A stretch of 46,507 bases of DNA from an uncultured Nitrospinota bacterium (GTDB lineage: Bacteria > Nitrospinota_A > UBA7883 > JAJRTC01). The notes beneath the pieces are model-generated. The model was not told the DNA's origin, made no database searches, and worked only from the letters and a program-made list of their open reading frames with translations. The position numbers were made by a program, and so were the translations under genes. Shown here in pieces: positions 2,461 through 23,265 of this stretch. Numbering within the stretch: the first letter of the stretch is position 1; each line of letters starts with the position of its first letter. The stretch lies in the NCBI GenBank assembly GCA_964395915.1, contig CAYNDB010000002.1:10817-57323 (forward strand), read 5' to 3'.

Positions 2461-2470
2461 ACTATCTCTC

Positions 2471-4918: not shown

Positions 4919-7660
4919 TTAACGTTGTTCCCTCCAGAGATACCATTTATAAGTTTCAACGATCAGAAAAACTGGCATCGCCACGACGAATATCAACGCC
5001 CAGTCATCCAGGGGTAACGGCATCGTATGAAATGCTTCCTGAAAGAATGGTATATAAACAACACCCACTTGAAACCCAACAGTTACCGTCCATGCCAGCA
5101 GAACCCATGGGTTGGTGAAAAAACCTATTTCGCGTAACGGACTTTTCAAAGACCGGAAGTTAAATACATTAATTTTTTCCAGAATGATGATTCCAGTAAA
5201 CGCAACCGTTTGAGCATGAAGGGTAGCGTTGTCTCCTCCTTGCGATAGCGTATGCTGAAACAGCCACAGTGTCGCCATGCCTATATATGTTCCTATAGCC
5301 AAAACGGTAAGGATTCCCGCTTTATTGATAATCGGCTCGGCAGGAGAGTGTGGCGGTCGTTTCATAACGTCTTTTTCCTTAGGCTCCAGTCCAAGAGCCA
5401 CCGCTGTCATCCCGTCAGTTACGAGGTTCATCCATAATATCTGGACAGGCAACAATATTAGCGGCCCGCCCAACATAATATTCGTTAAAATCGCAACCAC
5501 TTCCCCTACATTGGATGAGAGCAGGTACCGCACAAATTTCTGGATATTGTCATATTGCCTGCGTCCTTCCTCTATTGCTCCGATAATAGATGCGAAGTTA
5601 TCATCGGTCAGCACCATGTCGGACGCGCCTTTCGCCACGTCGGTTCCGCGAATGCCCATGGCGATGCCAACGTCCGCCTTTTTTAAAGCCGGAGCGTCGT
5701 TGACTCCGTCGCCGGTCATGCCGACCACGTGGCCCGCCAGTTTCAACCTTGTGACTATGCGAAGCTTATGTTCCGGAGTAGTGCGGGCGAATATAGGATC
5801 TTCGTCAAGGGCTGAATCCAGCGTCTGGTCATCCATGGAAGAAACATCGCTTCCGGTAATTACTCTTCCGATTTTAAGCCCAATCCGTTTTGCGATGGCC
5901 ATTGCGGTGCCTGCCGCGTCACCTGTAATCATGATGATACGGATACCAGCCAGGTTCCCAAGCTTGATTGCGTTCTTAGCTTCCGGCCGGGGCGGGTCGA
6001 TAATCCCCACCACTCCAAGCAATGTAAGATTTGTTTCAACAATATCCTCTCGTAAAGCGCAATCATCAGGGAGAGTTCGTCGGGCCAAAGCAAGCGTTCG
6101 CAAACCGCTGTCAGCCATATCGTTATATGTTGAAGTAAAAGTTTCTCTTTCTATGCTGGTTAAGGCGCGTTCTGTTCCATTCTCTAACACTCGTGAACAT
6201 CGTTCGATGATAACCTCCGGCGCTCCTTTGACATGCGCCATCATCCCATTCGGACTTCTTTCTATAACCGTCATTCGTTTACGAGAGGAATTAAAAGAAA
6301 ACTCGGAGACAGCGCGTACCTTCTCCTCATGTTTGATATGCGCTTTATACGCCACCACCACCAAAGCCGCTTCTGTCGGTTCGCCAATTTCGCGCCAGCC
6401 CTGTTCGTCTTTCGTCAGCTTTGCGTTGTTGCACTTCAGCCCGGTTTCCAGCAAAGCGGACAAATCTTTATTATTTTCGATGCTTATCTTTTCACCGTAT
6501 CGCTCAAAGTGTCCGGTGGGGTCGTATCCCACTCCTGTAACGTTATATTCCCCAGAGAGCAGGCTTATGCGTTGAACCGTCATTTCATTTCTTGTCAGCG
6601 TGCCGGTTTTATCTGTGCATATTACTGTGGCCGCGCCCAGGCTTTCCGCCGCTTGCAAGCGACGTAACAAAGCCCGTCGTTTGACCATTGCCCTAATTCC
6701 AATGGCAAGCGTTATTGTCACAACGGCGGGCAGACCTTCCGGGACAACCGCCACTGCCAACGAAACACCGATTAAGAACATTTCCGTCGGAGGCTTCTCC
6801 ATAAAAACGCCAATGATTGTAACCAGCGAGGCGATTACGAGCGATGCGATCCCAAGCTGTTTAGCTAATCCGGCCAGCTTTTTTTGCAGCGGGGTTGTTT
6901 CATCGGCCACACTCTGGGTAAGGTGAGCGATCCTGCCGAATTCCGTGTTCATACCTGTGGCCGTAACCACTCCGCGAGACCTTCCATTTGTAACAGCGGT
7001 TCCCATCCAGGCCATGGAACGTCTTTCCGCAAGGGGAGTGTTTTTATCAAGGGCTTTTGTGTCTTTATACGAGGAGACGGACTCTCCTGTCAGAACAGAT
7101 TCATCCACCTTGAGGTTGATCGCTTCGACAAGGCGCACATCAGCCGGTATTCTATCTCCTGTCGACAGCAATACCATGTCGCCGGGAACCAATGTCACAG
7201 CGTCTATTTCCTTTTCCCGTCCACCTCGCACGACATGGCAACGGAGTGACAACATCCGCTGCAGCGCTTCCATGGCTCTCTCCGCCTTCCACTCCTGGAT
7301 AAAACCGAGGATGCCGTTCAGGATAATGATGGCGAGAATAGTTATAGTGTCCGCAATTTCACCCAACATGAATGAAACGGCCGCGGCGACGAACAGGATA
7401 AGAATGAGGATGCTTTTAAACTGACGGACGAATACTTCATGCCATGTGACTTTTTGCGTTTCCAGCAACTTGTTTAGGCCATATGCAGCGCTGCGCCGGC
7501 GCGCTTCTTCTTCGCTTAACCCGGCATGTATATCGGAGCCAAGCGCTTTTACCGTGGCTTCGACGGTTTCAGCGTGCCAAATTTTTCGATTACTGTTTTG
7601 TTGGGCCATAATCGAGCCGTCCACATGACAAACATTACCACTATTGTTAATATCAGACAT
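4919..7660 (-). CDS. P2-type cation-transporting P-type ATPase (Ca2+-ATPase-like)
   Basis: 913 aa. Phosphorylation motif CTDKTGTLT, hinge TGDGVNDAPALKKADVGIAMG, TGES actuator motif, TM4 PEGLP and TM6 NLVTDG (type II signature). No CPC motif or HMA domain, so not a P1B heavy-metal pump. Confidence 0.9.
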   Translation of the reverse strand: MSDINNSGNVCHVDGSIMAQQNSNRKIWHAETVEATVKALGSDIHAGLSEEEARRRSAAYGLNKLLETQKVTWHEVFVRQFKSILILILFVAAAVSFMLGEIADTITILAIIILNGILGFIQEWKAERAMEALQRMLSLRCHVVRGGREKEIDAVTLVPGDMVLLSTGDRIPADVRLVEAINLKVDESVLTGESVSSYKDTKALDKNTPLAERRSMAWMGTAVTNGRSRGVVTATGMNTEFGRIAHLTQSVADETTPLQKKLAGLAKQLGIASLVIASLVTIIGVFMEKPPTEMFLIGVSLAVAVVPEGLPAVVTITLAIGIRAMVKRRALLRRLQAAESLGAATVICTDKTGTLTRNEMTVQRISLLSGEYNVTGVGYDPTGHFERYGEKISIENNKDLSALLETGLKCNNAKLTKDEQGWREIGEPTEAALVVVAYKAHIKHEEKVRAVSEFSFNSSRKRMTVIERSPNGMMAHVKGAPEVIIERCSRVLENGTERALTSIERETFTSTYNDMADSGLRTLALARRTLPDDCALREDIVETNLTLLGVVGIIDPPRPEAKNAIKLGNLAGIRIIMITGDAAGTAMAIAKRIGLKIGRVITGSDVSSMDDQTLDSALDEDPIFARTTPEHKLRIVTRLKLAGHVVGMTGDGVNDAPALKKADVGIAMGIRGTDVAKGASDMVLTDDNFASIIGAIEEGRRQYDNIQKFVRYLLSSNVGEVVAILTNIMLGGPLILLPVQILWMNLVTDGMTAVALGLEPKEKDVMKRPPHSPAEPIINKAGILTVLAIGTYIGMATLWLFQHTLSQGGDNATLHAQTVAFTGIIILEKINVFNFRSLKSPLREIGFFTNPWVLLAWTVTVGFQVGVVYIPFFQEAFHTMPLPLDDWALIFVVAMPVFLIVETYKWYLWREQR

Positions 7661-7686: not shown

Positions 7687-8700
7687 CTAGCAGATTCTGG
7701 GTAGAAGCTCCCCGTCCAGCCGTGTGACAAGCCTGGACCCGCCTATAACGGAAGCAAGGGATACCCTGCCGGGAGGCCCGTTTTCTATAACTCCAACTAG
7801 AGCGGCGTTTTCACCTTCCGGGTGAGAGCGCATTATTGATAAAGCTTTGCTGGCTTCATCAGCGGGGACAATGGCGATCATTTTACCTTCGTTTGCGATC
7901 ATAAGAGGGTCGAGCCCGAGTATTTCACAAGCCGCCAGAGTTGCAGGAGCCACTGGTAAATCGCTTTCGTTTAGACGTATGGAAACGTTTGAAGCTTCCG
8001 CTATTTCAACCAGGGTTGTGGCAAGTCCGCCTCGGGTGGGGTCGCGCAACACTTTTGGAGTCACGCCTCCATCAAGCAGCTCTTTGACAAGACCGTTCAG
8101 CGCAGCGGTGTCGCTTACCACTGGAGATTCGAAATTCAACCCTTCACGCGCCAGCATTATCGCGACGCCATGATCGCCAATGGTTCCGTTTACAAGAACG
8201 GCGTCTCCCGGCCTTGCCGCTCCGCAATTTATATCAAAGCCGTTTTGCGCAACACCGATGCCGGAGGTGTTTATAAATATCTTGTCACCCCGACCACGGG
8301 GAACAACCTTGGTGTCACCACACGCGAGCTTGACACCGGCGGCCCGCGCCGCGTCTCCCATCGATCGTAGTATCAAGCCAAGATCGTTTACTTCAAGGCC
8401 TTCCTCAAGTATCAGCCCCACGCTTATAGCCACAGGCATGGCGCCTCGCATGGCAAGATCGTTTACGGTTCCGTTTACGGCAAGCTCGCCTATGTTCCCC
8501 CCAGGAAAAATAAACGGGTCGACAACATAACTGTCGGTGGTGAAAAACGTTCTGCCCGCAGGAAGGTCGATCAACGCCGCGTCGTCCATTTCCTGCGCAG
8601 AATTTCCATTATGAATGTTAGGGATAATGATCTTTTCAATCAAGCGTTCGGTCATCAAGCCTCCGGAGCCGTGCCCCAGCAATATTATATCGTCACGCAT
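7687..8700 (-). CDS. hypE: Hydrogenase maturation protein HypE (carbamoyl dehydratase)
   Basis: The C-terminus ends in the HypE signature PRIC. N-terminal LGHGSGG and AIR-synthase-like fold motifs are present. The ORF track starts it at 8721. I prefer the ATG at 8700 because GGAGAGGAAAG lies upstream and it forms an ATGnnTGA overlap with the hypD stop. Either start is possible. Confidence 0.9.
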   Translation of the reverse strand: MRDDIILLGHGSGGLMTERLIEKIIIPNIHNGNSAQEMDDAALIDLPAGRTFFTTDSYVVDPFIFPGGNIGELAVNGTVNDLAMRGAMPVAISVGLILEEGLEVNDLGLILRSMGDAARAAGVKLACGDTKVVPRGRGDKIFINTSGIGVAQNGFDINCGAARPGDAVLVNGTIGDHGVAIMLAREGLNFESPVVSDTAALNGLVKELLDGGVTPKVLRDPTRGGLATTLVEIAEASNVSIRLNESDLPVAPATLAACEILGLDPLMIANEGKMIAIVPADEASKALSIMRSHPEGENAALVGVIENGPPGRVSLASVIGGSRLVTRLDGELLPRIC

Positions 8701-9799
8701 ACGCTTTCCTCTCCGCGCCATACTTCCATTCCGCCGCGCATGTCCCTTCCGATGAAACCATGCACGCTCCTATAGGATTGTCAGGCGTGCAGGCGCTTCC
8801 GAAAATTTTACAGTCGACCGGTTGTTTAAGCCCTTTTAATATCAGCCCGCAGATACATGCGGGATTTTCTTTTGTATCTTTGAATTCTACATTCCATTTA
8901 TAAGCCGCGTCCCGATGAATATACTTATCCGAGATGGCAAGGCCGCTTCCCGGTATCGATCCCAGGCCGCGCCATATGGCGTCCGATTTTTTGAATACTT
9001 CCTTTAAAATGGCCTGCGCTTTCAGGTTGCCTTCAGGCTTTACCACTCGATTGTATTCGTTCTCCACTTCCGCTCTGCCTTCGGCCACCTGCGCTGTCAG
9101 CATGGAAATCCCACGAAGAATGTCCAGCGGCTCAAAACCTGTTATGACGCAAGCCACGCGACGTTTTTCGACCAAAGGTTTATATCCGCTCTCTCCAATA
9201 ATGGCCGAGACATGGGCGGGACAGATATATCCATCTATTCCCAATTCACCTTCCGTCAATGCGGCCATAGGCTCCGGCATCACCTTATGCGCGGCGAGAA
9301 CAGTGTAGTTTGGTATATTTTCACGTTCCGCTGTAAGGATGGATGCGGCGACAGCGGGAGCTGTTGTTTCGAACCCGACACCAAGAAACACGACATTGGA
9401 CTGTGGATTATTATTGGCGATATCTACCGCGTCCATAGGGGAATAGACAATACGTATGTCGGCTCCCTTTGCGCGTTCCTTTATCAATGACGAGTCGGAG
9501 CCAGGAACTCGTATCATGTCTCCGAAGGTAGTAATTATAAACCCGTTGCGCCTCGCAAGCTCTATAGCGGCGTCGACATAACCTGTTGGCGTAACGCAGA
9601 CAGGGCAACCGGGGCCGGAAACGAGCCTTATGTTTTCAGGAATCAACGTCCTTATTCCATGGCGGTATATCGACATGGTATGTGTTCCACACACTTCCAT
9701 AAACGTCGCCTGTTTATTAAGGCGGGACGCTTGGCCGTGAAGATCGTCCGCTAGCTTTTTCGCAAGCTTGCCATCACGGAAATCGCTAAGATATTTCAT
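8693..9799 (-). CDS. hypD: Hydrogenase maturation protein HypD
   Basis: 368 aa. Contains GPGCPVC and GFETT motifs and the C-terminal cysteine-rich Fe-S region (CxxxxxC...C). Sits between hypC and hypE. Confidence 0.92.
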   Translation of the reverse strand: MKYLSDFRDGKLAKKLADDLHGQASRLNKQATFMEVCGTHTMSIYRHGIRTLIPENIRLVSGPGCPVCVTPTGYVDAAIELARRNGFIITTFGDMIRVPGSDSSLIKERAKGADIRIVYSPMDAVDIANNNPQSNVVFLGVGFETTAPAVAASILTAERENIPNYTVLAAHKVMPEPMAALTEGELGIDGYICPAHVSAIIGESGYKPLVEKRRVACVITGFEPLDILRGISMLTAQVAEGRAEVENEYNRVVKPEGNLKAQAILKEVFKKSDAIWRGLGSIPGSGLAISDKYIHRDAAYKWNVEFKDTKENPACICGLILKGLKQPVDCKIFGSACTPDNPIGACMVSSEGTCAAEWKYGAERKAYA

Positions 9800-10019
9800 C
9801 GTTACATTTCTTTTCTATTTCTCGCATAAGACGTAATGTCTCTTCCGCGACAGTTGTATCGAGCTTTTCAATGGCAAGCCCTGCATGAACAAGAATGTAG
9901 TCCCCGATATTTACGTTATCAAGGGCCAGCAGGCTTGCAGATTTTTTTACGCCATCAATCTCGGCCATGCAGGAAAACTCTGATATCTCAATTACCTTCA
10001 TAGGGACAGCCACGCACAT
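9786..10019 (-). CDS. hypC: Hydrogenase maturation chaperone HypC
   Basis: 77 aa. Begins with MCVAVPMKV, carrying the conserved essential Cys2. Confidence 0.9.
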   Translation of the reverse strand: MCVAVPMKVIEISEFSCMAEIDGVKKSASLLALDNVNIGDYILVHAGLAIEKLDTTVAEETLRLMREIEKKCNDEIS

Positions 10020-10021
10020 GA

Positions 10022-12331
10022 TTATCTTTCCTTTGATATTGCTTTTCTTGCTCCCGCAACCGCCTGTCCAAGCGAGATACCTCCGTCGTTCGGAGGCACA
10101 CGGCTGTGGCGAAACACTTGGAGCCCTTCAGACTCCAGCATCACCCCTAGCTTGTCTGAAAGATACCTGTTCTGAAACACTCCACCCGATAACGCTACGC
10201 TTCGAAGACCTGTTTGGCCGCTGATTCTTTTAATCATCTGACAAGCGCCTTCAGCGATGGTGTTGTGGAACATCGCCGACATTATGCCGATAGGAACGTT
10301 TTTCAGAGAATCCTCCACAAGCTTTTTAAAAACCGGATATATATCAAAAATAAATTTGTCATCCACCTTCACGATATTAACGGGGTAACTTTCCTTTATT
10401 CCCGTGGTCGCTATTGTTTCAAGCTCCATCGCCGCCTGACCTTCGAAAGACACTTTCCCTCGCAATCCGGTTAAAGCCGCCGCGGCGTCAAAAAGCCTTC
10501 CAACACCATGGGAATATGTTGTGTTCAACTTTTTTTCCACCATAATTTTTATCGTCTTAAGCTTTTCTGTGGTCACCTCATTCATCCATCTTACGGAAAG
10601 CTTAGGAATATTATCGCCATATAGCTCATGTAAAATGCCGACAGCTATCCGCCATGGCTCCTTTACCGCCACATCGCCACCGGGGAGCGGAACAGCGCTG
10701 GTATAACCCATCCGTTCATACCCACCCGCGTTACCGACAAAAAATTCGCCTCCCCAAATCGACCCATCGTCTCCATACCCCGTACCGTCAAAAATAACGC
10801 CGATAACTTCTTCGTCTAATGCGCCACGCTCCGCCAGTACCGAAACAAGATGCGCGTGATGATGCTGGACTTCCACTCGTTTGGACTCAGGAAAACTATC
10901 CCTCGCCCATTGAGAGCATGAGTAATCCGGATGTTTGTCGAAAGCGACGACAGAAAAATCCCTGACGTCCAGCATGTCAAAATAGCGTTCCATCGAAAAA
11001 CAGAAGTAGTCATACGATTTTTCGTATTTAAGATCGCCAATATGCGGGCTTATATAAGCGCGGTCTTCCTTTATGACACAAAAAGTGTTTTTCAGCTCTC
11101 CACCCACAGCCAGTGTTGTCGGATATTCACGGTCGAGCATAATGGGTATCGGCGCATATCCGCGCGAACGTCTTAACACGACGGGGCCATGGCTCATTGA
11201 AAGCTCGATAGAATCATCCGCCCGGTTATATATCGGCCTGTCGTGAACGAGAAAAGCGTCGGCGATTCCAGCAAGCCTCTCCCTGGCGTCTTTTTCGGTG
11301 TGAACTATCGGATCATCGCTTATGTTCGCGCTGGTCATAACGAGCGCATTGAAGTTTCCATCGGCCATAAGCAGGTAACTCAATGGAGTGTACGGCAACA
11401 TTATGCCGAGCTTTTTGTTGAAAGGGGCTACGCCTGACGGCATATTTTTCATCAGTTTTTGAACCAGGACAATTGGCCGTGAACGGCTTTTTAAAAGCTC
11501 TGCTTCGCTCTCAGAAATATCCGCATAAAGCTTTGCCCCATCCAACGAAGAACACATCAGCGCAAACGGTTTTTCATCCCGCAATTTTTTTCGTCGTAAG
11601 CGCATCACCGCGTTATTTTTATCAGCGTCCACTGCAAGGTGGTAGCCGCCAATACCCTTGATCGCAACGATTTTACCGGTAGCGAGAAGATCGATTGCCT
11701 TTGCAAGCGCGTTATTTTTTGTATCAATTACGTTAAACGACTCGTCCATAAGGCTTAACTGCGGCCCGCAAACATGGCAGGCCACAGGCTGCGCGTGAAA
11801 TCTGCGATCGGCCGGGTTCTCATATTCCTTCAGGCAGTCCGGGCACATCTGAAAATCCTTCATCGTAGTAAAAGGCCGGTCGTACGGAATGGATTTGATT
11901 ATCGTAAAACGTGGCCCGCAGTTCGTACAGTTAATGAAGGGATATCGATAACGCCGGTCGTTCGGATCGAACAGTTCATTAAGACAATCGGGACAAACAT
12001 CGCAATCGGGTGGAATCAAAGCTGTTTTCGATCCTTTATGATCGCTTTCCCTTATTTCAAAAGCGGAATCTTCGCCGCAACAAGCTTCATGTGAAGTCAC
12101 TTTGACGATATGTGAAAGGGGAGGGGAGAGGTCCGTCAGATCGCGCTCGAAAGCTTCGATATTTTCAATATCTCCTTCAACCTCAATATCGACTCCGGAG
12201 GAATTGTTCTCCACATAGCCTGTAAGGTTATGTTGTTTTGCAATACGATATATGAACGGTCGGAACCCTACGCCCTGCACGATTCCACGGACGTGTATAT
12301 GCTTGCGATATGCAAGCTGTTCATATTTCAT
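10022..12331 (-). CDS. hypF: Carbamoyltransferase HypF
   Basis: 769 aa. Has an acylphosphatase domain (VRGIVQGVGFRPFIY), two pairs of CxxC zinc fingers (CDVCPDC...CTNCGPR and CPDC...CHVCGP), then YrdC-like and Kae1-like domains. Confidence 0.93.
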   Translation of the reverse strand: MKYEQLAYRKHIHVRGIVQGVGFRPFIYRIAKQHNLTGYVENNSSGVDIEVEGDIENIEAFERDLTDLSPPLSHIVKVTSHEACCGEDSAFEIRESDHKGSKTALIPPDCDVCPDCLNELFDPNDRRYRYPFINCTNCGPRFTIIKSIPYDRPFTTMKDFQMCPDCLKEYENPADRRFHAQPVACHVCGPQLSLMDESFNVIDTKNNALAKAIDLLATGKIVAIKGIGGYHLAVDADKNNAVMRLRRKKLRDEKPFALMCSSLDGAKLYADISESEAELLKSRSRPIVLVQKLMKNMPSGVAPFNKKLGIMLPYTPLSYLLMADGNFNALVMTSANISDDPIVHTEKDARERLAGIADAFLVHDRPIYNRADDSIELSMSHGPVVLRRSRGYAPIPIMLDREYPTTLAVGGELKNTFCVIKEDRAYISPHIGDLKYEKSYDYFCFSMERYFDMLDVRDFSVVAFDKHPDYSCSQWARDSFPESKRVEVQHHHAHLVSVLAERGALDEEVIGVIFDGTGYGDDGSIWGGEFFVGNAGGYERMGYTSAVPLPGGDVAVKEPWRIAVGILHELYGDNIPKLSVRWMNEVTTEKLKTIKIMVEKKLNTTYSHGVGRLFDAAAALTGLRGKVSFEGQAAMELETIATTGIKESYPVNIVKVDDKFIFDIYPVFKKLVEDSLKNVPIGIMSAMFHNTIAEGACQMIKRISGQTGLRSVALSGGVFQNRYLSDKLGVMLESEGLQVFRHSRVPPNDGGISLGQAVAGARKAISKER

Positions 12332-12986
12332 GTGATTTCAGTCCCGTTAGAAACGAATACCACTCATCAAGACCTTCGCCTGAGGAAACAGACAATGTAA
12401 ACAAACGTATTTCAGGGTTAATATTTCTGGCGAGCTCAACACATTTATCGACATCGAAATCCACATATGGAAGAAGATCGGTTTTGGTAATAACCAGGGC
12501 TTTCGAGGCGCGGAACATATTTGGATATTTTGCCGGTTTGTCATCCCCTTCGGTAACTGACACCAGCGCCACTTTCATTTTTTCGCCAAGATCGTAGGAG
12601 GCGGGACATACAAGGTTGCCCACATTTTCTATCATAAGCAGGTGAATGGTGGTCAGATCGATGTGATCAAGCGCTTTCAGCGTCATGGACGCGTCCAGGT
12701 GGCAGGCGGACATTGTGTTAATTTGCGTTACTTGCGCTCCTGTTTTCGCTATTCGTCTGGCGTCATTATCGGTTTGCTGGTCTCCTTCGATGACTGCGAA
12801 ATTGATTTTGTCTTTGATCTCCGATATTGTCTTGACCAGCAAAGAGGTTTTCCCCGCTCCGGGTGAGCTTACAAAATTTAACGCCGTGACTTTGGTTTCC
12901 TTGAAAATCGCTCTGTTTATCACGGCTATCCTGTTGTTTTTTGTAAATACGTCCTTTTTTATTTCAATAACTGTCGGAGCTGTCAT
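12321..12986 (-). CDS. hypB: Hydrogenase nickel-incorporation GTPase HypB
   Basis: 221 aa. P-loop SSPGAGKTSLL, G-domain metal-site residues (SACH..., NLVCPA) and an ITKTD guanine motif. No His-rich or CxxCGC N-terminal extension. Confidence 0.9.
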   Translation of the reverse strand: MTAPTVIEIKKDVFTKNNRIAVINRAIFKETKVTALNFVSSPGAGKTSLLVKTISEIKDKINFAVIEGDQQTDNDARRIAKTGAQVTQINTMSACHLDASMTLKALDHIDLTTIHLLMIENVGNLVCPASYDLGEKMKVALVSVTEGDDKPAKYPNMFRASKALVITKTDLLPYVDFDVDKCVELARNINPEIRLFTLSVSSGEGLDEWYSFLTGLKSHEI

Positions 12987-13330
12987 GTTGTCTCCACCTC
13001 AATACTTTTCACAACAAGATCATCTCCCTGCAAGACGGTTGCAGGGCCAGAGCATTCCGGACAAACAAAATATTGGCTATCAGGACTGAACTCAAGTACA
13101 CATGCGGGACAGAGAGCCACGGCTGGAATCTTGTTCAACACAAGCCTGCTCCCCTCCGTAACGACGGCCTCTTTTGAGCAAGCTTCGTAGCAAAATTCCA
13201 GCGCGTCACAACTAACACCAGCCAAATCGCCAATATCGACTGTGACAGTTAACACCTTGAGCGCATTTTGGCTCAGGACGGATTCCTCGACAACAGCGAT
13301 AACGCTCATAGCGATTGACATTTCATGCAT
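12983..13330 (-). CDS. hypA: Hydrogenase nickel-insertion protein HypA
   Basis: 115 aa. Starts MHEMSIA (the MHE nickel site). Two CxxC pairs (CPAC...CPEC) form the zinc site. ATGA overlap with hypB. Confidence 0.9.
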   Translation of the reverse strand: MHEMSIAMSVIAVVEESVLSQNALKVLTVTVDIGDLAGVSCDALEFCYEACSKEAVVTEGSRLVLNKIPAVALCPACVLEFSPDSQYFVCPECSGPATVLQGDDLVVKSIEVETT

Positions 13331-13564: not shown

Positions 13565-14374
13565 ATGGGACCGGCGGACAATACTGCAACGGCTAACAAC
13601 GACATATACCTTGTTGTGAGAACTCGTTCCATCTTTGCGTGTCTCCTGCACTGGATATTATTCACATCTGTGGTAGTTCTTACGCTCACAGGGTTATACA
13701 TCGGCTACCCGTCATATTTTTACGGGCAGGGTGAAGCGTGGCAAGCGTCCACAATGGCTGATATCCGGACATATCATCTTTACGCGGCGCTTGCGCTGAT
13801 ATTCTCGATTTTCACCAGAATGTATCTTGCGTTTACAAAATCATGCAACAGGGATATGAAACAATTCCTTCCCACACCTAAAAATATAATCGGGGCGCTA
13901 CGTCTCGCAAAATTCTTTATAACTTTCAAAGGCCCCCACAAACATTACCGCTTTGTAAACCCGCTTGGGGGTATAGGCATTTTCACGATGTCGATACTAT
14001 TCCTCGTTCAAATTTTCACGGGGTTGGCGCTTTATCTTCCGGGAGCCAATCCAGACAGCTGGTGGTGGGCCATATGGATACAGCCTGTGGCGGAAAACCT
14101 CCTGGGAGGTTTGCAGGGGGTGCGTCTTATTCACCATATTGCTATGTATATATTGGCGGCGGTCGTAATCATTCATGTATATATGCAAATTTGGAAAACC
14201 AGCATGTACACGGAATCTGACATATCTTCAATAATTTCCGGATACAAAATATTCCCGTTAAGCCAGATAGGCCATTTCGACGATGTATACGGTATACGGC
14301 TGGACGATGCTCCGCCAAGCAAAGATGAGATGGAGAAAGAGTCTGAAATTACTATCGAAGCAAGATATAAATGA
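13565..14374 (+). CDS. Dihaem b-type cytochrome membrane subunit of [NiFe]-hydrogenase (HyaC/HydC/FdnI family), copy 1
   Basis: 269 aa with four predicted TM helices. Conserved His residues in TM1 (LLHW), TM2 (YHLY) and TM4 (IHH...IIHVY). RBS GGAGAGGA. Ends 20 bp upstream of the small subunit gene. Confidence 0.8.
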   Translation: MGPADNTATANNDIYLVVRTRSIFACLLHWILFTSVVVLTLTGLYIGYPSYFYGQGEAWQASTMADIRTYHLYAALALIFSIFTRMYLAFTKSCNRDMKQFLPTPKNIIGALRLAKFFITFKGPHKHYRFVNPLGGIGIFTMSILFLVQIFTGLALYLPGANPDSWWWAIWIQPVAENLLGGLQGVRLIHHIAMYILAAVVIIHVYMQIWKTSMYTESDISSIISGYKIFPLSQIGHFDDVYGIRLDDAPPSKDEMEKESEITIEARYK

Positions 14375-14394: not shown

Positions 14395-15519
14395 ATGTGT
14401 CAAACAGGAGGATTGATCGGGCCTACGCGTGAGGAAAAGCTTGAGGCCCTTGGGAACCTTGACCGGCGGGATTTTATGATGTTTTGCGTTACGATCGCCG
14501 CCACGCTTGGGCTGAGCCCTTCGTTTATTCCTAAAATAGCGGAAGCTATAGAAAAGGCCGCCAGCAAACCTTCTGTGATATGGCTCCATTTCGCGGAATG
14601 TACCGGAGACTCCGAGGCTTTCCTCCGCTCGACATACCCATCCATTGAAGATTTGATTTTGAACATTCTCTCCATCGATTATCACGAGACCATCATGGCC
14701 CCGTCGGGCGATGCCGCGGAAGAGGCGCTGGCAAAAGCGATGAAGGATAACAAAGGTAAATATATTGCCGTGTGTGAAGGCGCCATTCCAATGGCCACCC
14801 CTCCGGGACCAGCGGGCAAACTCGGCTCTTACCTTACTCTCGGCAATAAAACAGGATTTGAGCTTGCAAAAGAAGTATGCTCGGACGCATTCGCTGTGAT
14901 GTGTGTAGGGACATGCTCTTCTTTTGGTGGTGTTCAGGCGCAGAGACCAAACCCCACAGGAGCGGTTGGAGTGGAGGACGCTATTGGAATCCCCACGCTT
15001 AAGATACCGGGATGCCCTCATAACGTTATCAACTCGGTCGCTTCAATAGTCAACTATCTCCTGCTGGGTTCACTGCCAGCGACAGACAGGCTGGGGCGCC
15101 CGCTTTTCGCATATGGCAAGCGGATACACGACACCTGCCCGCGAAGAGCGCATTTCGACGCGGGCCAATATGTGGAACAATTCGGCGACGAAGCTTCTAA
15201 AAGAAGGTGGTGTCTCTACAAGGTTGGATGCAAAGGTCCGCAGACCTATCACAACTGTTCGCAAGTTGGATACAACGACAACACCTCATGGCCCATTAAA
15301 GGCGGACACGGATGCATAGGATGTTCCGAGCCGAACTTTTGGGATGATATGCAACCCTTCTATGAGAGGCTGCCAAACGTGAGGTTACCGGGAGTTGAGG
15401 CTACTGCGGACAAGGTCGGCATGACGCTGGTCGGCGCCGCGGCGGCCGGAGCCGCGGGACATGCCGCATGGACAATATTCAACAGGAAAAAGTTCGACGA
15501 CACCTCCAAGGATGAATAA
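14395..15519 (+). CDS. [NiFe]-hydrogenase small subunit, Tat-exported, with a C-terminal membrane anchor
   Basis: 374 aa. Tat motif DRRDFMMF. Aligns by eye along the whole length to standard group-1 small subunits (WLHFAECTG-, GTCSSFGG, IPGCPHN, HDTCPR, CLYKVGCKGP, HNC, GHGCIGCSEPNFWD). Hydrophobic C-terminal helix VGMTLVGAAAAGAAGHAAWTIF. Confidence 0.93.
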   Translation: MCQTGGLIGPTREEKLEALGNLDRRDFMMFCVTIAATLGLSPSFIPKIAEAIEKAASKPSVIWLHFAECTGDSEAFLRSTYPSIEDLILNILSIDYHETIMAPSGDAAEEALAKAMKDNKGKYIAVCEGAIPMATPPGPAGKLGSYLTLGNKTGFELAKEVCSDAFAVMCVGTCSSFGGVQAQRPNPTGAVGVEDAIGIPTLKIPGCPHNVINSVASIVNYLLLGSLPATDRLGRPLFAYGKRIHDTCPRRAHFDAGQYVEQFGDEASKRRWCLYKVGCKGPQTYHNCSQVGYNDNTSWPIKGGHGCIGCSEPNFWDDMQPFYERLPNVRLPGVEATADKVGMTLVGAAAAGAAGHAAWTIFNRKKFDDTSKDE

Positions 15520-15537: not shown

Positions 15538-17202
15538 ATGGGTGAGAGGCACGTTATAGATCCTATTACCAGGATCGAGGGACATCTGAGGATAGAGATA
15601 GAGCTTGAAAACGGAAAGGTGAAAGACGCCTGGAGTTCCGGAACGCTTTGGCGGGGCTTTGAGGTGTTCCTTAAAGGGCGCGACCCGCGTGACGCATGGC
15701 TCATAACACAGCGGGTTTGCGGCGTATGCACCGAGGTGCACGCGCTCACATCCGTCAAATGTGTCGAGAACGCGGCCGGGATAAAAATTCCTGATAACGC
15801 GCGGCTTATACGCAACCTTATCCACGGCGCTCAATATCTGCACGATCATCCTGTGCATTTTTATCATCTGCACGCATTGGACTGGGTGGATGTGGTCTCG
15901 GCGCTTAAGGCCGATCCTAAAAAAACATCGGAGCTTACAAATTCCATCAACCCGAACGCTCCCAGAAGTGGCCCTGGCGATTTTGCGGTTGTGAAGGATA
16001 AGCTAAGCAAATTCGTTTCCGCAGGCCAGCTTGGGCCATTTACGAATGGATACTGGGGGCACCCGGCATATAAGCTGCCGCCGGAGGCGAACCTGATGGC
16101 TGTCGCCCACTATCTTACAGCGCTTGCGATGCAAAGCAGGATCGCCAGGATGCACGCTGTGTTTGGCGCGAAAAATCCGCATATACAAACGTACACCGTC
16201 GGCGGTGTGACGTGTATCAACGATCTTAACGCGGACAGGATCAGCGAGTTTCTGTTCATTCTTCGTGAAGCGAAAGATTTTATCGATAACGTTTATATCC
16301 CGGACGTACTGGCCGTCGCCCCTTTCTATCTTGACTGGGCCAAGCTCGGCGGAGGTGTGAAAAACTATCTGACGTATGGAATGTTCCCTCAAAAAGGTGG
16401 TGAGGAACCGGATAATTTATGGTTCCCGCGTGGCGTGATCCTGGACAGGGACCTTTCTAAAGTTCACCCGGTGGACGTAGACAAGATAACAGAGGATGTT
16501 ACTCACGCCTGGTACAAATATTCAAAGGACGAGCCGCTGCACCCAAGTGTTGGGGAGACAGACCCATGGTACACGGGAATAGAAACGGGCAAAGAAAATG
16601 GGAAATACTCGTGGCTGAAAACTCCGCGCTATGACGGAAAGGCCATGGAGGTGGGGCCACTTTCCAGGATGCTTGTCAACTACGCATCTGGACATGAATC
16701 GACAGTGCGTGAGGTAAATGGCGTACTCAAAGCGCTGGGAGTAGGGCCGGAGATACTTTTCTCCACGCTTGGCCGCACAGCCGCCAGAGCCATTGAAACA
16801 AAGATTATCGCTCATGAGATGGAAAACTGGGTGAACGAATTGCTTTCGAACATCAAGAAGGGTGATTTGAAAACATGTGTAGATTATCCGGCGCCATCAG
16901 TCGCAAAGGGGTTTGGCATGACAGAGGCTCCCCGCGGCGCGCTCGGCCATTGGATAGAAATCGTCGATGGAAAGATAAAGAACTATCAGCTGGTCGTGCC
17001 GACAACATGGAATGGATCACCGAGGGATAAAAACAATATACGGTCGGCGTTCGAAGAGTCGCTTATCGGGACACCTGTTATCGATCCGAAACAGCCGGTC
17101 GAGGTGTTGCGGACTATTCATTCGTTCGATCCGTGTCTTGCATGTTCGGTTCATATCATTGACCCAGATAATAATGAGACCTACACGGTAAAAGCCGTGT
17201 AG
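15538..17202 (+). CDS. [NiFe]-hydrogenase large (catalytic) subunit
   Basis: 554 aa. N-terminal RIEGHLRIE and RVCGVCTEVH (L1/L2 Ni-Fe ligands). C-terminal DPCLACSVH followed by a 15-residue tail that the endopeptidase would remove. The ligands are Cys, not Sec, so this is not a [NiFeSe] enzyme. Confidence 0.95.
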   Translation: MGERHVIDPITRIEGHLRIEIELENGKVKDAWSSGTLWRGFEVFLKGRDPRDAWLITQRVCGVCTEVHALTSVKCVENAAGIKIPDNARLIRNLIHGAQYLHDHPVHFYHLHALDWVDVVSALKADPKKTSELTNSINPNAPRSGPGDFAVVKDKLSKFVSAGQLGPFTNGYWGHPAYKLPPEANLMAVAHYLTALAMQSRIARMHAVFGAKNPHIQTYTVGGVTCINDLNADRISEFLFILREAKDFIDNVYIPDVLAVAPFYLDWAKLGGGVKNYLTYGMFPQKGGEEPDNLWFPRGVILDRDLSKVHPVDVDKITEDVTHAWYKYSKDEPLHPSVGETDPWYTGIETGKENGKYSWLKTPRYDGKAMEVGPLSRMLVNYASGHESTVREVNGVLKALGVGPEILFSTLGRTAARAIETKIIAHEMENWVNELLSNIKKGDLKTCVDYPAPSVAKGFGMTEAPRGALGHWIEIVDGKIKNYQLVVPTTWNGSPRDKNNIRSAFEESLIGTPVIDPKQPVEVLRTIHSFDPCLACSVHIIDPDNNETYTVKAV

Positions 17203-17215
17203 CCGGAGGTAACAT

Positions 17216-17908
17216 ATGCCACATAGATTTATATCACCGCAAAAAAAGAAGCTGGTTTACGTGCGGAATTTCACGAACCGGTTATTGCACTGGACTATGT
17301 TTTTTGCGGTAATGGTTCTGTTGCCGACAGGTTATTATATCGGTAATCCAACCGCCGTTTACGGGCAGGGTGAGCCAGTTCAGGCGTTTGTTATGGCCGA
17401 CATCAGGCTATACCATTTCTATGCCGCTATGGCTTTGGATGTAGCCATAATGATTCGTTTCTACCTTGCGTTTTTCAGTGTATACCACCGTGACTGGTAC
17501 GAAATAATACCAACACCTGCAAATATTTATGGCGCTCTAAAAGTCATCGGAAGTTATATAACATTCAAAAAGCCCCCGTTTTTTCGCCATACCGACCCGT
17601 TTGACGGGTTTATGTTTCTAACTTTACATCTGTTTATGGTTCTGCAACTTGTGACAGGATTCCAGCTCTATGTCCACGCTTTGCCAGGCGACTACTGGTT
17701 CGCGCAGCTTATTCATATGGGCACAGACTGGATAACATGGTTGCTGGGAAGCGATCAAACCGTACGGCTTGTTCATCACATGATGCTCTGGATCATGATT
17801 GCAGGAATAATAGTTCACGTATATATCCAGGTAATCAAGACTGTGATATGGCGGGACGGACATATTTCAACCATTATCGGCGGATATAAATACCGCGATG
17901 TAAAATGA
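17216..17908 (+). CDS. Dihaem b-type cytochrome membrane subunit of [NiFe]-hydrogenase (HyaC/HydC/FdnI family), copy 2
   Basis: 230 aa and clearly paralogous to 13565..14374. For example MADIRLYHFYAAMAL...RFYLAF here matches MADIRTYHLYAALAL...RMYLAF there, and VRLVHHM...IIVHVYIQV matches VRLIHHI...VIIHVYMQI. RBS GGAGG. Confidence 0.85.
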   Translation: MPHRFISPQKKKLVYVRNFTNRLLHWTMFFAVMVLLPTGYYIGNPTAVYGQGEPVQAFVMADIRLYHFYAAMALDVAIMIRFYLAFFSVYHRDWYEIIPTPANIYGALKVIGSYITFKKPPFFRHTDPFDGFMFLTLHLFMVLQLVTGFQLYVHALPGDYWFAQLIHMGTDWITWLLGSDQTVRLVHHMMLWIMIAGIIVHVYIQVIKTVIWRDGHISTIIGGYKYRDVK

Positions 17909-18426
17909 CAAAACCAGCCAAGCCTCGTATCGTGATTATTGGCATAGGCAATATTTTCCTGTCCGATGAAGGGGTAGGCGTTCACGCTATAAGTAAACTT
18001 TTAAATGAATGGGAGTTCCCCTCAAACGTTGAAGTATATGATGGTGGTGTTACAGGAATGATGGGGCTCCTGCCAATTATTGAAGACACGGATCACCTGA
18101 TAGTAATCGACGTGGTAAACTCGGGCGATCCGCCCGGCTACATCCGCACATACACACTGGGTGATTTCAGGCTTGTCATGCCAAAGAAACTTTCCGCGCA
18201 TGATATCGGTTTTTTAGAATGCATCGCCATTGCTGAAATCAACGGGAAAACTCCGAAATCTGTGACTGTCATCGGTATTAAACCTGTGGATATAGAAACT
18301 CCCCGAAACGTTTTGAGCGATATTGTTGATTCAAAGCTTGCCGAAATAACGGAAATAACAATCGGCGAGTTGCAAAAACTGGGAGCGATAGCCGTTAAAC
18401 GGCAATTTAGTTCGCCATCTTTTTAA
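17905..18426 (+). CDS. Hydrogenase maturation endopeptidase (HyaD/HybD/HupD family)
   Basis: 173 aa. N-terminal VIIGIGNIFLSDEGVGVHA, an internal IDVV motif and an SAHDIG motif, all typical of this family. ATGA overlap with the preceding cyt b gene. Confidence 0.9.
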   Translation: MTKPAKPRIVIIGIGNIFLSDEGVGVHAISKLLNEWEFPSNVEVYDGGVTGMMGLLPIIEDTDHLIVIDVVNSGDPPGYIRTYTLGDFRLVMPKKLSAHDIGFLECIAIAEINGKTPKSVTVIGIKPVDIETPRNVLSDIVDSKLAEITEITIGELQKLGAIAVKRQFSSPSF

Positions 18427-18504: not shown

Positions 18505-19638
18505 ATGTTTGCATTGGCAAGAGTTATACGAATGATTTCTGTTTTGGCGCTCGTAATTACCATTGCCTTTTCGCCAAGCTCTGTCCGCGCCGATGAAAAA
18601 GAGTCTTATACAAGCTCAAATGTCTGTGGCGCATGTCATGTGGAAATATTCGAGAGTTGGCGTAAATCTTTACACGCTCTGTCATACAATAACCAGGTGT
18701 TTTTAACGGCATATCGTGAAGCGTATCTTGAAACCAATGGCTCCGCGAAATATTTCTGTCTGAAATGTCACGCCCCGACATATCTTGTTACAGGAGACGT
18801 GGATGCGGCTTATCCGATAACCAGGGAGGGTGTCACATGCGATTTTTGCCATACGATTGTGGGCGTTGACGTCACCAATACAGAATCGCCTTTCAAGCTC
18901 GATGTCGGCGGCGCTAAACATTCGTCACTGAAAAACGCAAAGTCGGAGGCCCATTCAACCTCATACGCAGACTGGTTTAATAAATCGGAAATGTGCGGCG
19001 CCTGCCACGAAGTTACGAACATGAACGGAGTAAGGACCGGAAGCACATACAGCGAATGGAAATCTTCCAGTTACGCGGCTGATGGCGTCCAGTGCCAGCA
19101 TTGTCATATGGCTCCTGTTCCAGGTAACGTTGTAGACCCGTCAGTTCAAGATAGCTCCAAAAATGTTTTCCATGAACATAGCCTCTCGCACAATATGGAT
19201 CAGATGAAAAACGCAATCAAGGTTGAAATAGTAGGAAAAGAAAAAATGGCGGATGGGCGCTATATCGTTGACGTCGCTATTACAAATAAAAAAGCGGGGC
19301 ATAACATACCAACAGGCTCTCCGTCACGCAAGCTGGCTCTGGAAGTCAGACTCTCCGGCGAAAACTATACTGAGTCTGTTCAGCTTAAGAAATTCGGTAA
19401 GGATATAGTCGATAAATCTGGAAACGCTCTTACGATGGACGGCGAGGTCATGATGAGGGGCGCAAAGGTCACAGGAAACAGCTCACTTAAACCGAAGGAG
19501 CGCAGGGTGGAGCGATTTATGTTCAGCGCGGCGCCAAGGGGCGAGGTAAAAGTGTCCGCCAGAGCTTTCCTCATTTATCGTCACGTTGTTACCGTTGAAG
19601 AAAGTACCTTGATTCAGATGGGCTCAGCGGTTAAATAA
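18505..19638 (+). CDS. Secreted pentahaem cytochrome c with a non-haem C-terminal domain
   Basis: 377 aa with a signal peptide ending SVRA. Five CxxCH motifs (CGACH, CLKCH, CDFCH, CGACH, CQHCH), all in the first ~205 residues. The C-terminal ~150 residues have no haem motif. Confidence 0.85.
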   Translation: MFALARVIRMISVLALVITIAFSPSSVRADEKESYTSSNVCGACHVEIFESWRKSLHALSYNNQVFLTAYREAYLETNGSAKYFCLKCHAPTYLVTGDVDAAYPITREGVTCDFCHTIVGVDVTNTESPFKLDVGGAKHSSLKNAKSEAHSTSYADWFNKSEMCGACHEVTNMNGVRTGSTYSEWKSSSYAADGVQCQHCHMAPVPGNVVDPSVQDSSKNVFHEHSLSHNMDQMKNAIKVEIVGKEKMADGRYIVDVAITNKKAGHNIPTGSPSRKLALEVRLSGENYTESVQLKKFGKDIVDKSGNALTMDGEVMMRGAKVTGNSSLKPKERRVERFMFSAAPRGEVKVSARAFLIYRHVVTVEESTLIQMGSAVK

Positions 19639-19863: not shown

Positions 19864-21900
19864 ATGGGGAAAGCGAAAATGAATCGCTCCATTATAATCA
19901 TTCTGCTGGTTGCCGCGCTATTCCAGGTAACTGTGGCATCCGGTTCAGAAAACTGTTTCCAATGCCACTCCGATCCAGAACTTAAAATGGAAAGAAATGG
20001 TAAAACGATTTCCCTATATGTAGACAAAAATAAATTCATCAAGTCAGCTCATGGCGATTTTGATTGCGCCGCTTGTCATCTTGAAGTTAACCCCGAAAAG
20101 ATACCACACTTCGCGGATTATCAAAGAGTGGAGTGCGGCTCCTGTCATGAGGAAGCGCAAGAATCATATTCGAAAGGGTCGCACGGAGCGGCGCTGAAAA
20201 GGGAGGTGAAAGACGCTCCTGATTGCGTTACCTGCCATGGCAAGCACAATATACTAGCTTCCACAGAACGTTCATCGAAAACCAACAGGATGAATATACC
20301 CTCTTTGTGCGGGGAGTGTCATCGAAAAAAAGGTAAGGCTGTGGAGGCTACTGGACGGACTGCTTTGGGAGTTTATAGCGACTATTCTTTCAGCGTTCAC
20401 GGCAAGGGACTTCGTGAAAAGGGACTTCTGCCGTCAGCGATTTGTACAGACTGCCACAACAGCCATAAAGCTATTAGGAGCAGAGACTCTCTTTCCCCTG
20501 TTAACAGGCTGAATATCGATTCCACATGCGGGCGGTGCCACCTTGGTATTCTTGAAAAGCTTGAAAAGAGCATTCATTATACAGTGAATAAAAATGACGC
20601 AGGGAAATATCCGACATGCTCAGACTGCCATTCCGCTCATCAAATTTCCGAAGTAAAACGAGGGAAGTTCATCATGGAGGTACGCTACCAGTGTGGAGTT
20701 TGTCACGCCAAGCTTTCAGAAACCTATCTTGAAACAATTCATGGAAAAGCTTTCCAACTCGGTTATCTTAAAGCGGCTTCATGCTCCAACTGTCATGAAT
20801 CACATATGACACTTGCGGTTAATAACTCTGATTCCAGCGTTGGGAAAAAAAATATTTTAAAAACATGCCGAAAATGTCACGAAAGGGCAACATATAAATT
20901 TACCCAATACCTGACACACGCCACGCACAAGGACAAGGAGCGATATCCGGCGCTTTACTACGCATACTGGAGCATGACTACTTTGCTATTAAGTGTTTTC
21001 GGTTTTTTTGGTCTCCACACCCTGTTGTGGTTGCCCAGATCATTAGCGCACAGAAAAAAACTTAAAAAAGAAGTGAAAATCGGACGATACATCTTGCGTT
21101 TCACCCTTGCCGATCGAATAACTCATCTATTTGTCGTTACAAGCTTCCTTCTTTTGGCGTTAACCGGTATGGTTCTGAAATTTTCCTCAATGCCATGGGC
21201 TTTGTGGCTCTCCGATATTATGGGCGGCCCTGCTGTAGCCAGAATCATTCATAGAATATGCGCGGTTATTACTTTCGGTTACTTTTTTTATCATCTTTGG
21301 GGTCTTGCTAAAAAGAAACGTGACAAAGGGACAACCTGGGCGAAATTTATTTTTGGTGAAAACTCTATTTTCCCCAACCTGCATGATGTCAAAGAATTCT
21401 GGGGTACAATCAAATGGTTCGTTGGAGCTGGGCCAAGACCTTTGTATGGACATTGGACATACTGGGAAAAATTTGACTACTTTGCCGTATTCTGGGGTGT
21501 GGCTATTATTGGGCTAAGTGGATTGATGCTCTGGTTTCCCGAACAGTTTACTATTCTGTTCCCCGGTTGGGTAATCAACGTCGCTACAATAATACATAGC
21601 GAAGAGGCCTTACTTGCGACAGGTTTTATTTTTGTTGTCCATTTTTTCAACACGCACTTAAGGCCAGAGTCTTTTCCTATGGATAAAATCATTTTCACTG
21701 GAGCCATTCCTGAGGAGAGGCTTGCGCTTGAGCGACCTTCCGAATACGAAGAGCTCAAGAAAAGTGGAGAAATAGATAAACTTGTTGTCGAGGCGCCATC
21801 GGAGAAGTGGGATAAATACATTTATATTATAGGCGGGGCGTTTCTGGTAATCGGCATTGCGCTGGCTCTTCTAATAATTTATTCCACACTTGCGGACTGA
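19864..21900 (+). CDS. Fusion protein: 11-haem periplasmic cytochrome c domain plus C-terminal HydC/FdnI-type dihaem-b membrane domain (CbcL-like)
   Basis: 678 aa with a signal peptide. Eleven CxxCH motifs lie in residues ~30-340 (CFQCH, CAACH, CGSCH, CVTCH, CGECH, CTDCH, CGRCH, CSDCH, CGVCH, CSNCH, CRKCH). These are followed by 5-6 TM helices with conserved His (ITHLF, IIHRI, IIHSEE, VVHFFNTH). An alternative start at the ATG at 19879 has the better RBS (GGGGAAAG). Confidence 0.85.
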   Translation: MGKAKMNRSIIIILLVAALFQVTVASGSENCFQCHSDPELKMERNGKTISLYVDKNKFIKSAHGDFDCAACHLEVNPEKIPHFADYQRVECGSCHEEAQESYSKGSHGAALKREVKDAPDCVTCHGKHNILASTERSSKTNRMNIPSLCGECHRKKGKAVEATGRTALGVYSDYSFSVHGKGLREKGLLPSAICTDCHNSHKAIRSRDSLSPVNRLNIDSTCGRCHLGILEKLEKSIHYTVNKNDAGKYPTCSDCHSAHQISEVKRGKFIMEVRYQCGVCHAKLSETYLETIHGKAFQLGYLKAASCSNCHESHMTLAVNNSDSSVGKKNILKTCRKCHERATYKFTQYLTHATHKDKERYPALYYAYWSMTTLLLSVFGFFGLHTLLWLPRSLAHRKKLKKEVKIGRYILRFTLADRITHLFVVTSFLLLALTGMVLKFSSMPWALWLSDIMGGPAVARIIHRICAVITFGYFFYHLWGLAKKKRDKGTTWAKFIFGENSIFPNLHDVKEFWGTIKWFVGAGPRPLYGHWTYWEKFDYFAVFWGVAIIGLSGLMLWFPEQFTILFPGWVINVATIIHSEEALLATGFIFVVHFFNTHLRPESFPMDKIIFTGAIPEERLALERPSEYEELKKSGEIDKLVVEAPSEKWDKYIYIIGGAFLVIGIALALLIIYSTLAD

Positions 21901-22145: not shown

Positions 22146-22745
22146 TTACCAATCCTCCTCTGAAGCCAGCAAATGCCCCATGTCGTGACAACCGCTGGAC
22201 AAACATGAGCGCCTGCCGTCCATTATCTGATCGGACAGACCATCACCCAGCATATGAGGCAGGGCTTCAATAAAATTCCGCGCAACACCATGACATCGCA
22301 GGCAATTCCTGTTTTCATATTTTTCATAGAGCTTAATTTTTTCAGGGGCGCCTTTTACGTAATAAACATAAAGATGTTTTACCCCTCTTAACTTGGCTTG
22401 CACAGGGCCGAACATGGTGTATTGAGTATGGCACGCATAACATGCTTCCTCCTGCGGCACCCAGTTGTTCTGGAAATGAATAGCCGATAGCGGCTCATCG
22501 TCGTCTACATTGAGACTTTCAACGTATTTGGTCATAACGTGGCATTTTGCGCAGAAGCTTACCTTTTTCACCCTTTCAAGGTCTTGCGACACAACTCCCA
22601 AACCCCAGAAAAGAGGGAAAACGCCCAAAGTGAAAAAAGCCAGGAACTTTTTTGCCCTTACGGTGAGACGCCGCCATTCTCCTATGAGCATGAATGAGAT
22701 GAAAACGATGTTGCCCAGCGCAAAAAATATCAGGATTATAGTCAT
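22146..22745 (-). CDS. Membrane-anchored NapC/NirT/NrfH-like multihaem cytochrome c (three CxxCH plus one Cx4CH)
   Basis: 199 aa with two N-terminal hydrophobic helices. Haem motifs CAKCH, CYACH and CLRCH, plus C-terminal CLSSGCH (a Cx4CH encoded at 22185..22205). Confidence 0.75.
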   Translation of the reverse strand: MTIILIFFALGNIVFISFMLIGEWRRLTVRAKKFLAFFTLGVFPLFWGLGVVSQDLERVKKVSFCAKCHVMTKYVESLNVDDDEPLSAIHFQNNWVPQEEACYACHTQYTMFGPVQAKLRGVKHLYVYYVKGAPEKIKLYEKYENRNCLRCHGVARNFIEALPHMLGDGLSDQIMDGRRSCLSSGCHDMGHLLASEEDW

Positions 22746-23178: not shown

Positions 23179-23265
23179 GCCATTTCCCTCCTTTGAAAAG
23201 GAAATCAAATAGAAGAGACTTTTCTACTTATAAATATAAGCCCTTAATTTTAAAAATGGCGAAAA

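Follow-up and report, generated by a model that had tools for sequence, protein, structure and literature searches.

An aspartate at the second proximal-cluster ligand position is fixed in a lineage of predicted Tat-exported [NiFe]-hydrogenases from uncultured Nitrospinota

The small subunit of a [NiFe]-hydrogenase encoded by an uncultured Nitrospinota bacterium carries aspartate (Asp72) at the position of the second cysteine ligand of the proximal iron-sulfur cluster. The gene was found in a stretch of DNA of 46,507 nucleotides, hereafter the window, to which all coordinates refer. Asp72 is fixed throughout the enzyme lineage and maintained by purifying selection, and the enzyme is one case of an Asp/Asn variant that is widespread in small subunits of groups 1 and 2 and had been noted before. 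We consider it likely that a lineage-fixed Asp of this known type, acting as a ligand of a [4Fe-4S] cluster, is the best overall explanation of the site.

The small subunit precursor of 374 residues (14395..15519, forward strand) is preceded by a GGAGG ribosome-binding site. It matched TIGR00391 with 391.9 bits (cut-off 179.5), and its homologues contained PF01058 and PF14720. The twin-arginine motif R24-R25-D-F27 (14464..14475, forward strand), read directly from the sequence, aligned with vsRRDFlkf of D. vulgaris and precedes a hydrophobic stretch and A-x-A, which at the motif level predicts a Tat signal; 46 of the 50 clade members had RRxF. Near the C-terminus, hydropathy indicated a membrane anchor, V341..F362 (15415..15480, forward strand), aligning to the anchor region of C. 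necator HoxK and E. coli HyaA. The large subunit of 554 residues (15538..17202, forward strand; best PDB match 1h2a_L, E 2.5e-197) contained the L1 motif QRVCGVCTEVH and the L2 motif DPCLACSVH, the latter followed by a 15-residue tail, IIDPDNNETYTVKAV, which is predicted to be cleavable. Two genes for cytochrome b subunits flanked the pair on the same strand. The upstream copy (13565..14374) scored 130.6 bits against TIGR02125, with a cut-off of 121.5, and was found upstream in seven clade loci; the downstream copy (17216..17908) scored 117.5 bits, just below that cut-off, and was also kept in the clade loci; the duplication as such was preserved in seven of them. A HyaD/HybD-type maturation endopeptidase lay near the large subunit (17905..18426, forward strand; TIGR00072, 120 bits, cut-off 47.45). 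The maturation genes hypE, hypD, (hypC), hypF, hypB and hypA ran divergently on the reverse strand (7687..13330), recognised by the Pfam families AIRS/AIRS_C and HypD, ORF translations and tblastn synteny. An earlier sequence-only reading of this DNA had described a Tat signal, a C-terminal anchor and cytochrome b partners, and all three were recovered here. From its gene content, the locus is predicted to encode a periplasmic respiratory H2-uptake [NiFe]-hydrogenase, exported by the Tat route, anchored in the membrane and linked to cytochrome b. By Pfam, the remainder of the window held ordinary housekeeping genes, and an Rfam scan of the window gave no matches.

The codons GAA TGT ACC GGA GAC TCC GAG (14596..14616) encode Glu68-Cys69-Thr70-Gly71-Asp72-Ser73-Glu74. 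Within this segment, C69-T70-G71-D72 (14599..14610, forward strand) combines the Cys of ligand 1 with Asp at the ligand-2 position, and the GAC codon of Asp72 (14608..14610) falls without gaps into the column of the second proximal-cluster Cys. A phmmer search against the PDB paired FAECTGDSEAFLRS with NAECTGCSESVLRA of the best-matching structure, D. vulgaris Miyazaki F (1h2a_S, E 3e-95), and the alignment was gap-free for about 60 residues on each side. The Asp72 column corresponded to Cys20 of D. vulgaris and to Asp35 of the actinobacterial-type enzyme of C. necator (5AA5). In the MAFFT alignment, it fell on Cys20 of E. coli Hyd-1 (HyaA) and Cys25 of Hyd-2 (HybO), both in mature numbering; the columns of Cys69, Cys174 and Cys207 corresponded to Cys17, Cys115 and Cys149. 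The sequence-only description of CTGD in place of CTGC at the second proximal Cys was thus fully confirmed. The register shift that might have moved another Cys to this position did not appear, and an alternative ligand-2 Cys is ruled out by the gapless alignment; the candidates Cys127 and Cys170 vary in the clade.

Cluster-ligand positions were canonical in 11 of 12 cases (four proximal, three plus Pro medial, and His plus three Cys distal), the exception being proximal position 2, and the Pro-type 3Fe-4S medial site was kept with Pro300, as the sequence-only reading had also stated. Proximal ligand 3 is Cys174 of the G-T-C motif (14914..14916, forward strand), equivalent to Cys115 of Hyd-1. 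Ligand 4 is Cys207, which by alignment is followed by Pro208-His209 (15013..15021, forward strand) and not by the usual Pro-Pro; the His was invariant in the clade. The distal residues His245, Cys248, Cys273 and Cys279 and the medial residues Cys288, Pro300, Cys307 and Cys310 (15127..15324, forward strand) were invariant in 120 homologues. Glu128 (14776..14778, forward strand), which aligned with Glu76 of Hyd-1 and Asp81 of Hyd-2 and was invariant in 50 of 50 clade members, would place another carboxylate next to the ligand-2 iron. Oxidation of Hyd-2 displaces the iron bound by Cys25, which Asp81 then captures (PMC5902676). Since Cys25 occupies the Asp72 column, the redox-plastic iron of the proximal cluster is the one at Asp72.

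The question of whether a single residue occurs "more than by chance" is meaningless; conservation is the relevant test, and Asp72 passed it. Asp was present at ligand 2 in 50 of 50 clade members with 59-79% identity, where the clade comprises the studied enzyme and its 49 closest protein clusters, all from Nitrospinota MAGs, some of which are labelled Nitrospirae. Across 13 independent genome loci, the Asp codon was GAC in nine and GAT in four, and it is this synonymous variation on an invariant residue that points to purifying selection. The possibility that the true enzyme has Cys, and that Asp reflects a sequencing or assembly error or a decaying gene, is accordingly negligible. Error would have to recur in 13 independent assemblies and 49 clade protein clusters, through both GAC and GAT, and Cys to Asp takes two nucleotide changes; decay disagrees with an intact small-subunit ORF in which every other ligand is present, and with an operon that is complete. 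We reject sequencing error on the clade-wide Asp with its synonymous codon variation, which is stronger evidence than the read pile-up of one assembly.

Beyond the clade, the variant was far from rare. The ligand-2 residue in the 120 closest homologues was Asp in 96, Asn in 24 and Cys in none. For a broader view, cluster representatives at 50% identity were searched exhaustively with HMMER, and 150 representatives were aligned with hmmalign. The motif was covered in 106 of them, with 79 Cys, 17 Asn, 8 Asp, 1 Glu and 1 Pro at ligand 2. Asp or Asn was thus found in 25 of the 106 representatives (~24%), and 17 of these 25 had an RRx[FL] motif. Those of the 120 homologues that lie beyond the Nitrospinota clade came from Nitrospirota, Geobacter and others, with the motif LEFQDCAG[D/N], and Asn freely replaced Asp within the related Geobacter/Nitrospirota clade. 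Two enzymes encoded on plasmids, those of Sulfurimonas paralvinellae (CAGN) and Sulfobacillus acidophilus (CDGN), also had the variant, and both were accompanied by a cytochrome b gene. Judging from these sequences, the Asp/Asn variant is common among Tat-type, cytochrome-b-linked enzymes. It has also been noted before. In Yonemoto 2014, Geobacter metallireducens is listed with "Proximal, position 2, Cys to Asp" and HupS of Nostoc with Cys to Asn, with multiple members per substitution (PMC4070099). Mohammadi 2017 reported Asn or Asp for Cys in group 1f of Roseiflexus, Geobacter and Frankia, and only three Cys in some 1b, 1f and 1g enzymes (PMC5364354). The sequence-only reading had implied that Asp is unusual in a Tat-exported, cytochrome-b-linked enzyme, and this part did not hold; its own caveat, that the variant might prove common and have been described before in this hydrogenase subgroup, turned out to be correct. 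In the searchable literature, we found no Tat-exported, cytochrome-b-linked enzyme with 3Cys+Asp/Asn ligation that had been characterised structurally or spectroscopically.

The residue that follows ligand 4 covaried with the substitution. Over 218 aligned small subunits, which are phylogenetically non-independent, Asp, Asn or Glu at ligand 2 never occurred together with G-C-P-P (0/146), whereas 51 of 72 sequences with Cys had it. The Nitrospinota clade has G-C-P-H with invariant His209, and within the sampled sequences His was found at this position only together with Asp or Asn; most other Asp/Asn enzymes have Val, Met, Ala or Leu there. Loss of the second Pro probably accommodates the longer side chain at ligand 2, by making room for it or by bonding to it.

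The closest structural precedent for Asp at this column is the group 1h enzyme of C. necator, in which the proximal [4Fe4S] cluster is reported to have three Cys and one Asp as ligands, and whose O2-insensitivity is reported to be lost on substitution of the Asp (2024 review, PMC11023054). The sequence-only reading had named a 3Cys+1Asp structure for group 1h only, and 5AA5 was indeed the only solved case that we found. The pHG1-encoded HofK has the same sequence as 5aa5_A; C-D-G-D35 of HofK aligned with C-T-G-D72, and HofK, like the studied subunit, has no Pro-Pro after ligand 4 (GCPV). By analogy, the carboxylate of Asp72 would be the fourth ligand of a proximal [4Fe-4S] cluster, binding through oxygen. 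In standard enzymes, redox lability is a property of the iron at ligand 2, and the conserved carboxylate of Glu128 would adjoin this iron; an O-ligand is therefore expected to alter the potential of the cluster and its response to oxidation. The idea of the sequence-only reading that Asp72 could tune cluster potential or O2 behaviour is thus a reasonable one. With modest confidence, we infer that Asp72 O-ligates a [4Fe-4S] cluster with altered potential and oxidative behaviour.

The main rival is a proximal [3Fe-4S] cluster on Cys69, Cys174 and Cys207, with Asp72 only shaping the pocket, as in Huc. Huc, a group 2a enzyme, has [3Fe-4S] clusters at all three positions, an assignment based on the density maps together with the residue in the fourth coordinating place at each cluster (PMC10017518), so a non-Cys fourth residue can mean a missing iron and not an O-ligand. 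Such a cluster would raise the potential of the relay by roughly 250 mV. Asn is a poor iron ligand, and its exchange with Asp in related clades fits this reading, as does the background given in PMC4070099 that Cys-to-Asp changes in other Fe-S proteins can give 3Fe clusters. Nevertheless, we find it unlikely, because 5AA5, the only solved enzyme with Asp at the exact column, has an Asp-bound [4Fe-4S] cluster, the Nitrospinota clade has strictly Asp and never Asn (50/50), and a heterologous small subunit with unusual ligations, cited in PMC4070099, was reported with 4Fe4S-type clusters. As a separate observation, the Asp/Asn interchange in the Geobacter/Nitrospirota clade speaks against a carboxylate ligand being strictly required.

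His209, or one of the extra cysteines Cys127 and Cys170, could instead supply the fourth ligand and leave Asp72 a bystander, which seems to us very improbable. His209 is invariant in the clade and, in our sample, His accompanies only Asp or Asn, but the aliphatic residues and Met found there in most Asp/Asn enzymes elsewhere mean that His is not generally required. Cys127 and Cys170 are frequent in the clade (41/50 and 45/50, respectively), but they are not invariant and cannot be essential ligands. We retain oxygen ligation of a [4Fe-4S] cluster by Asp72 as the preferred reading.

An engineered counterpart exists in HynS of Alteromonas macleodii, where C81D and C81N change the same position of a Tat-exported enzyme that remained active (PMC4070099); these substitutions were artificial and introduced into an engineered enzyme with 12 Cys, and the study assigned no cluster type.

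Apart from the shared Asp, the studied enzyme differs clearly from HofK/HofG. HofK is 27% identical to the studied subunit and lacks a Tat signal, a C-terminal anchor and cytochrome b, and the L1/L2 motifs of HofK/HofG are RICGICGDNH / DPCLPCGVH, compared to RVCGVCTEVH / DPCLACSVH here; the Pro-type 3Fe-4S medial site is kept in the studied enzyme. Group 1h is defined by the absence of Tat signal and anchor, L1 TSRICGICGDNH and L2 SFDPCLPCGVH (PMC5364354), and we rejected this assignment on the Tat motif and anchor, the different L1/L2 and the low identity. Group 1d, which is O2-tolerant with a [4Fe-3S] proximal cluster, was rejected since the supernumerary Cys19 and Cys120 are missing, with Gly71 and Gly179 at those columns. 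A [NiFeSe]/group 1a enzyme was likewise rejected, as L2 DPCLACSVH has Cys and not Sec and the medial Pro300 is kept. The model NF033181 gave a score of 619, just over its cut-off of 600, but it carries a generic product name.

Groups 1f and 1b required a closer comparison. The nearest small-subunit homologues outside the clade (53-58% identity) belong to the Geobacter Hya-type group, which, with its Nitrospirota and Myxococcales relatives (HydDB 1f, "oxygen-protecting"), shares the Tat signal, the anchor, cytochrome b, Asp/Asn at ligand 2 and GCP-V/M. Asp72 itself represents the group 1f trait of Asp/Asn at proximal ligand 2. However, the Geobacter enzymes have one cytochrome b gene compared to two here, and LEFQDCAGD/N where the studied enzyme has LHFAECTGD; one Geobacter member showed the S-L-cytochrome b-protease operon of the Hya arrangement. 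The best solved relatives of both subunits, 1h2a_S and 1h2a_L, are prototypical group 1b. Group 1b enzymes (D. vulgaris Miyazaki F, D. gigas, Shewanella Hya) gave the best PDB matches and share the flank LH.AECTG.SE, but they have four-Cys proximal ligation and GCPP, and those of Desulfovibrio are soluble, with cytochrome c3 as their electron acceptor.

In neighbour-joining (NJ) trees, the Nitrospinota clade was sister to canonical CTGC enzymes of Desulfobacterota, in 189 of 200 replicates for the large subunit and in 277-296 of 300 for the concatenated subunits. The latter range covers three distance corrections; all these trees rest on a modest taxon sample, and their deeper nodes are unsettled. 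Direct grouping with the Geobacter/Myxococcales Asp/Asn clade was seen in 0-2 of 300 NJ replicates (1% or less bootstrap), and this placement does not support filing the enzyme under group 1f on Asp alone. The sisters, from Desulfomonile tiedjei and Syntrophobacteraceae (loci L021, L015 and L017), have large subunits 58-62% identical to that of the studied enzyme; in contrast to it, they carry the canonical Cys and GCPP, and are soluble enzymes with short, anchorless small subunits and no adjacent cytochrome b. With CTGC sisters in the NJ trees, repeated gain or loss of the ligand-2 swap within group 1 is indicated, and the tree topology suggests an apparent independent occurrence of Asp in the Nitrospinota lineage.

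The HydDB survey of Kop 2024 placed the Nitrospinota classes UBA7883 and UBA9942 in group 1b as a class-level label, assigned MAG NC_50_18, the source of the orthologue L009, to 1a as well as 1b, and described membrane-bound group 1b in non-Nitrospinia Nitrospinota as O2-sensitive (PMC10839748). Metagenomic surveys infer O2 sensitivity from the HydDB class in this way, for example "O2-sensitive 1b" for Nitrospinota. Such inferences may be unsafe because a quarter of the family differs at the ligand that controls the O2 behaviour of group 1h. A more far-reaching proposal is that the Nitrospinota lineage gained Asp independently of 1f and 1h, together with His209 and a second cytochrome b, and that Asp72, Glu128 and His209 would form a redox-switchable O/N ligation giving O2 resilience to a periplasmic, membrane-bound enzyme labelled O2-sensitive 1b in classifier-based surveys. 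We regard this proposal as doubtful, with the odds well against it. If it were true, it would represent a third, convergent route to O2 tolerance, and H2 oxidation by these bacteria would have been mis-scored as strictly anaerobic.

We must also note that sequences with the 3Cys+Asp/Asn signature are common and have been recognised before, and the finding alone is of limited weight. Mildly new are the apparent independent occurrence beside CTGC sisters, the mutual exclusion of Asp/Asn and GCPP along with the invariant His, and the conserved pair of cytochrome b genes. For annotation, the exclusion between Asp/Asn and G-C-P-P offers a simple two-site sequence signature of the variant.

The second Pro of the standard GCPP motif around proximal ligand 4 was replaced in the small subunit by His209 (C207-P208-H209, window 15013..15021), and this His was invariant across the 50-member Nitrospinota clade. 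Among 218 sequences, GCPP accompanied none of the 146 Asp, Asn or Glu variants at ligand 2 and 51 of the 72 enzymes with Cys at that position, and His at position 209 was found solely alongside Asp or Asn at ligand 2. The small subunit opens with Met-Cys (14395..14400). This Cys2, located well upstream of the Tat motif, was found in 37/50 clade members.

The large subunit (15538..17202) scored above the cut-off of the NCBIfam model NF033181, short name "NiFeSe_hydrog" (619 vs 600 bits). Despite this match, its L2 carries Cys and not Sec, and the small subunit retains a Pro-type medial site.

Two hydrogenase-type cytochrome b genes (13565..14374 and 17216..17908), sharing about 35-45% identity with each other, lie on either side of the hydrogenase structural genes. 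The gene order cytb-S-L-cytb, optionally followed by a protease gene, was common to seven loci of the Nitrospinota clade. In contrast to the two copies in the window, the Geobacter, Myxococcales and Mycobacterium-MAG relatives have a single hydrogenase cytochrome b, whereas the CTGC sister enzymes of Desulfomonile tiedjei and Syntrophobacteraceae have none. Directly 3′ of the operon we observed a c-type cytochrome gene cluster (18505..19638, 19864..21900, and, on the minus strand, 22146..22745 and 22834..23208), which encodes an ExtKL-like multihaem protein, a fusion of a multihaem domain with an FdnI-like cytochrome b, a NapC/NirT-like protein and a small cytochrome c. In the relatives, nothing equivalent to this cluster was found in the 8 kb around the hydrogenase genes, and it could be a lineage-specific electron outlet. 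Elsewhere in the window, the gene for an Fe4S4-domain molybdopterin oxidoreductase adjoins that for a cytochrome c7/c3-type protein (205..3031, minus strand).

The plasmid-borne hydrogenases of Sulfobacillus acidophilus (CDGN) and Sulfurimonas paralvinellae (CAGN) have Asn at ligand 2, are cytochrome-b-linked, and were placed near Shewanella group-1b-type enzymes in NJ trees. On plasmid pHG1 of C. necator, the group 1h small subunit HofK (4963..6018 of locus L083; NC_005241.1 59962..61017), identical to 5aa5_A, is labelled in RefSeq as "hydrogenase expression protein HypE", as are its homologues on Streptomyces and Mycobacterium plasmids. The name HypE on HofK-type small subunits is an annotation error, and because of this mislabelling, keyword searches miss HofK-type group 1h genes.
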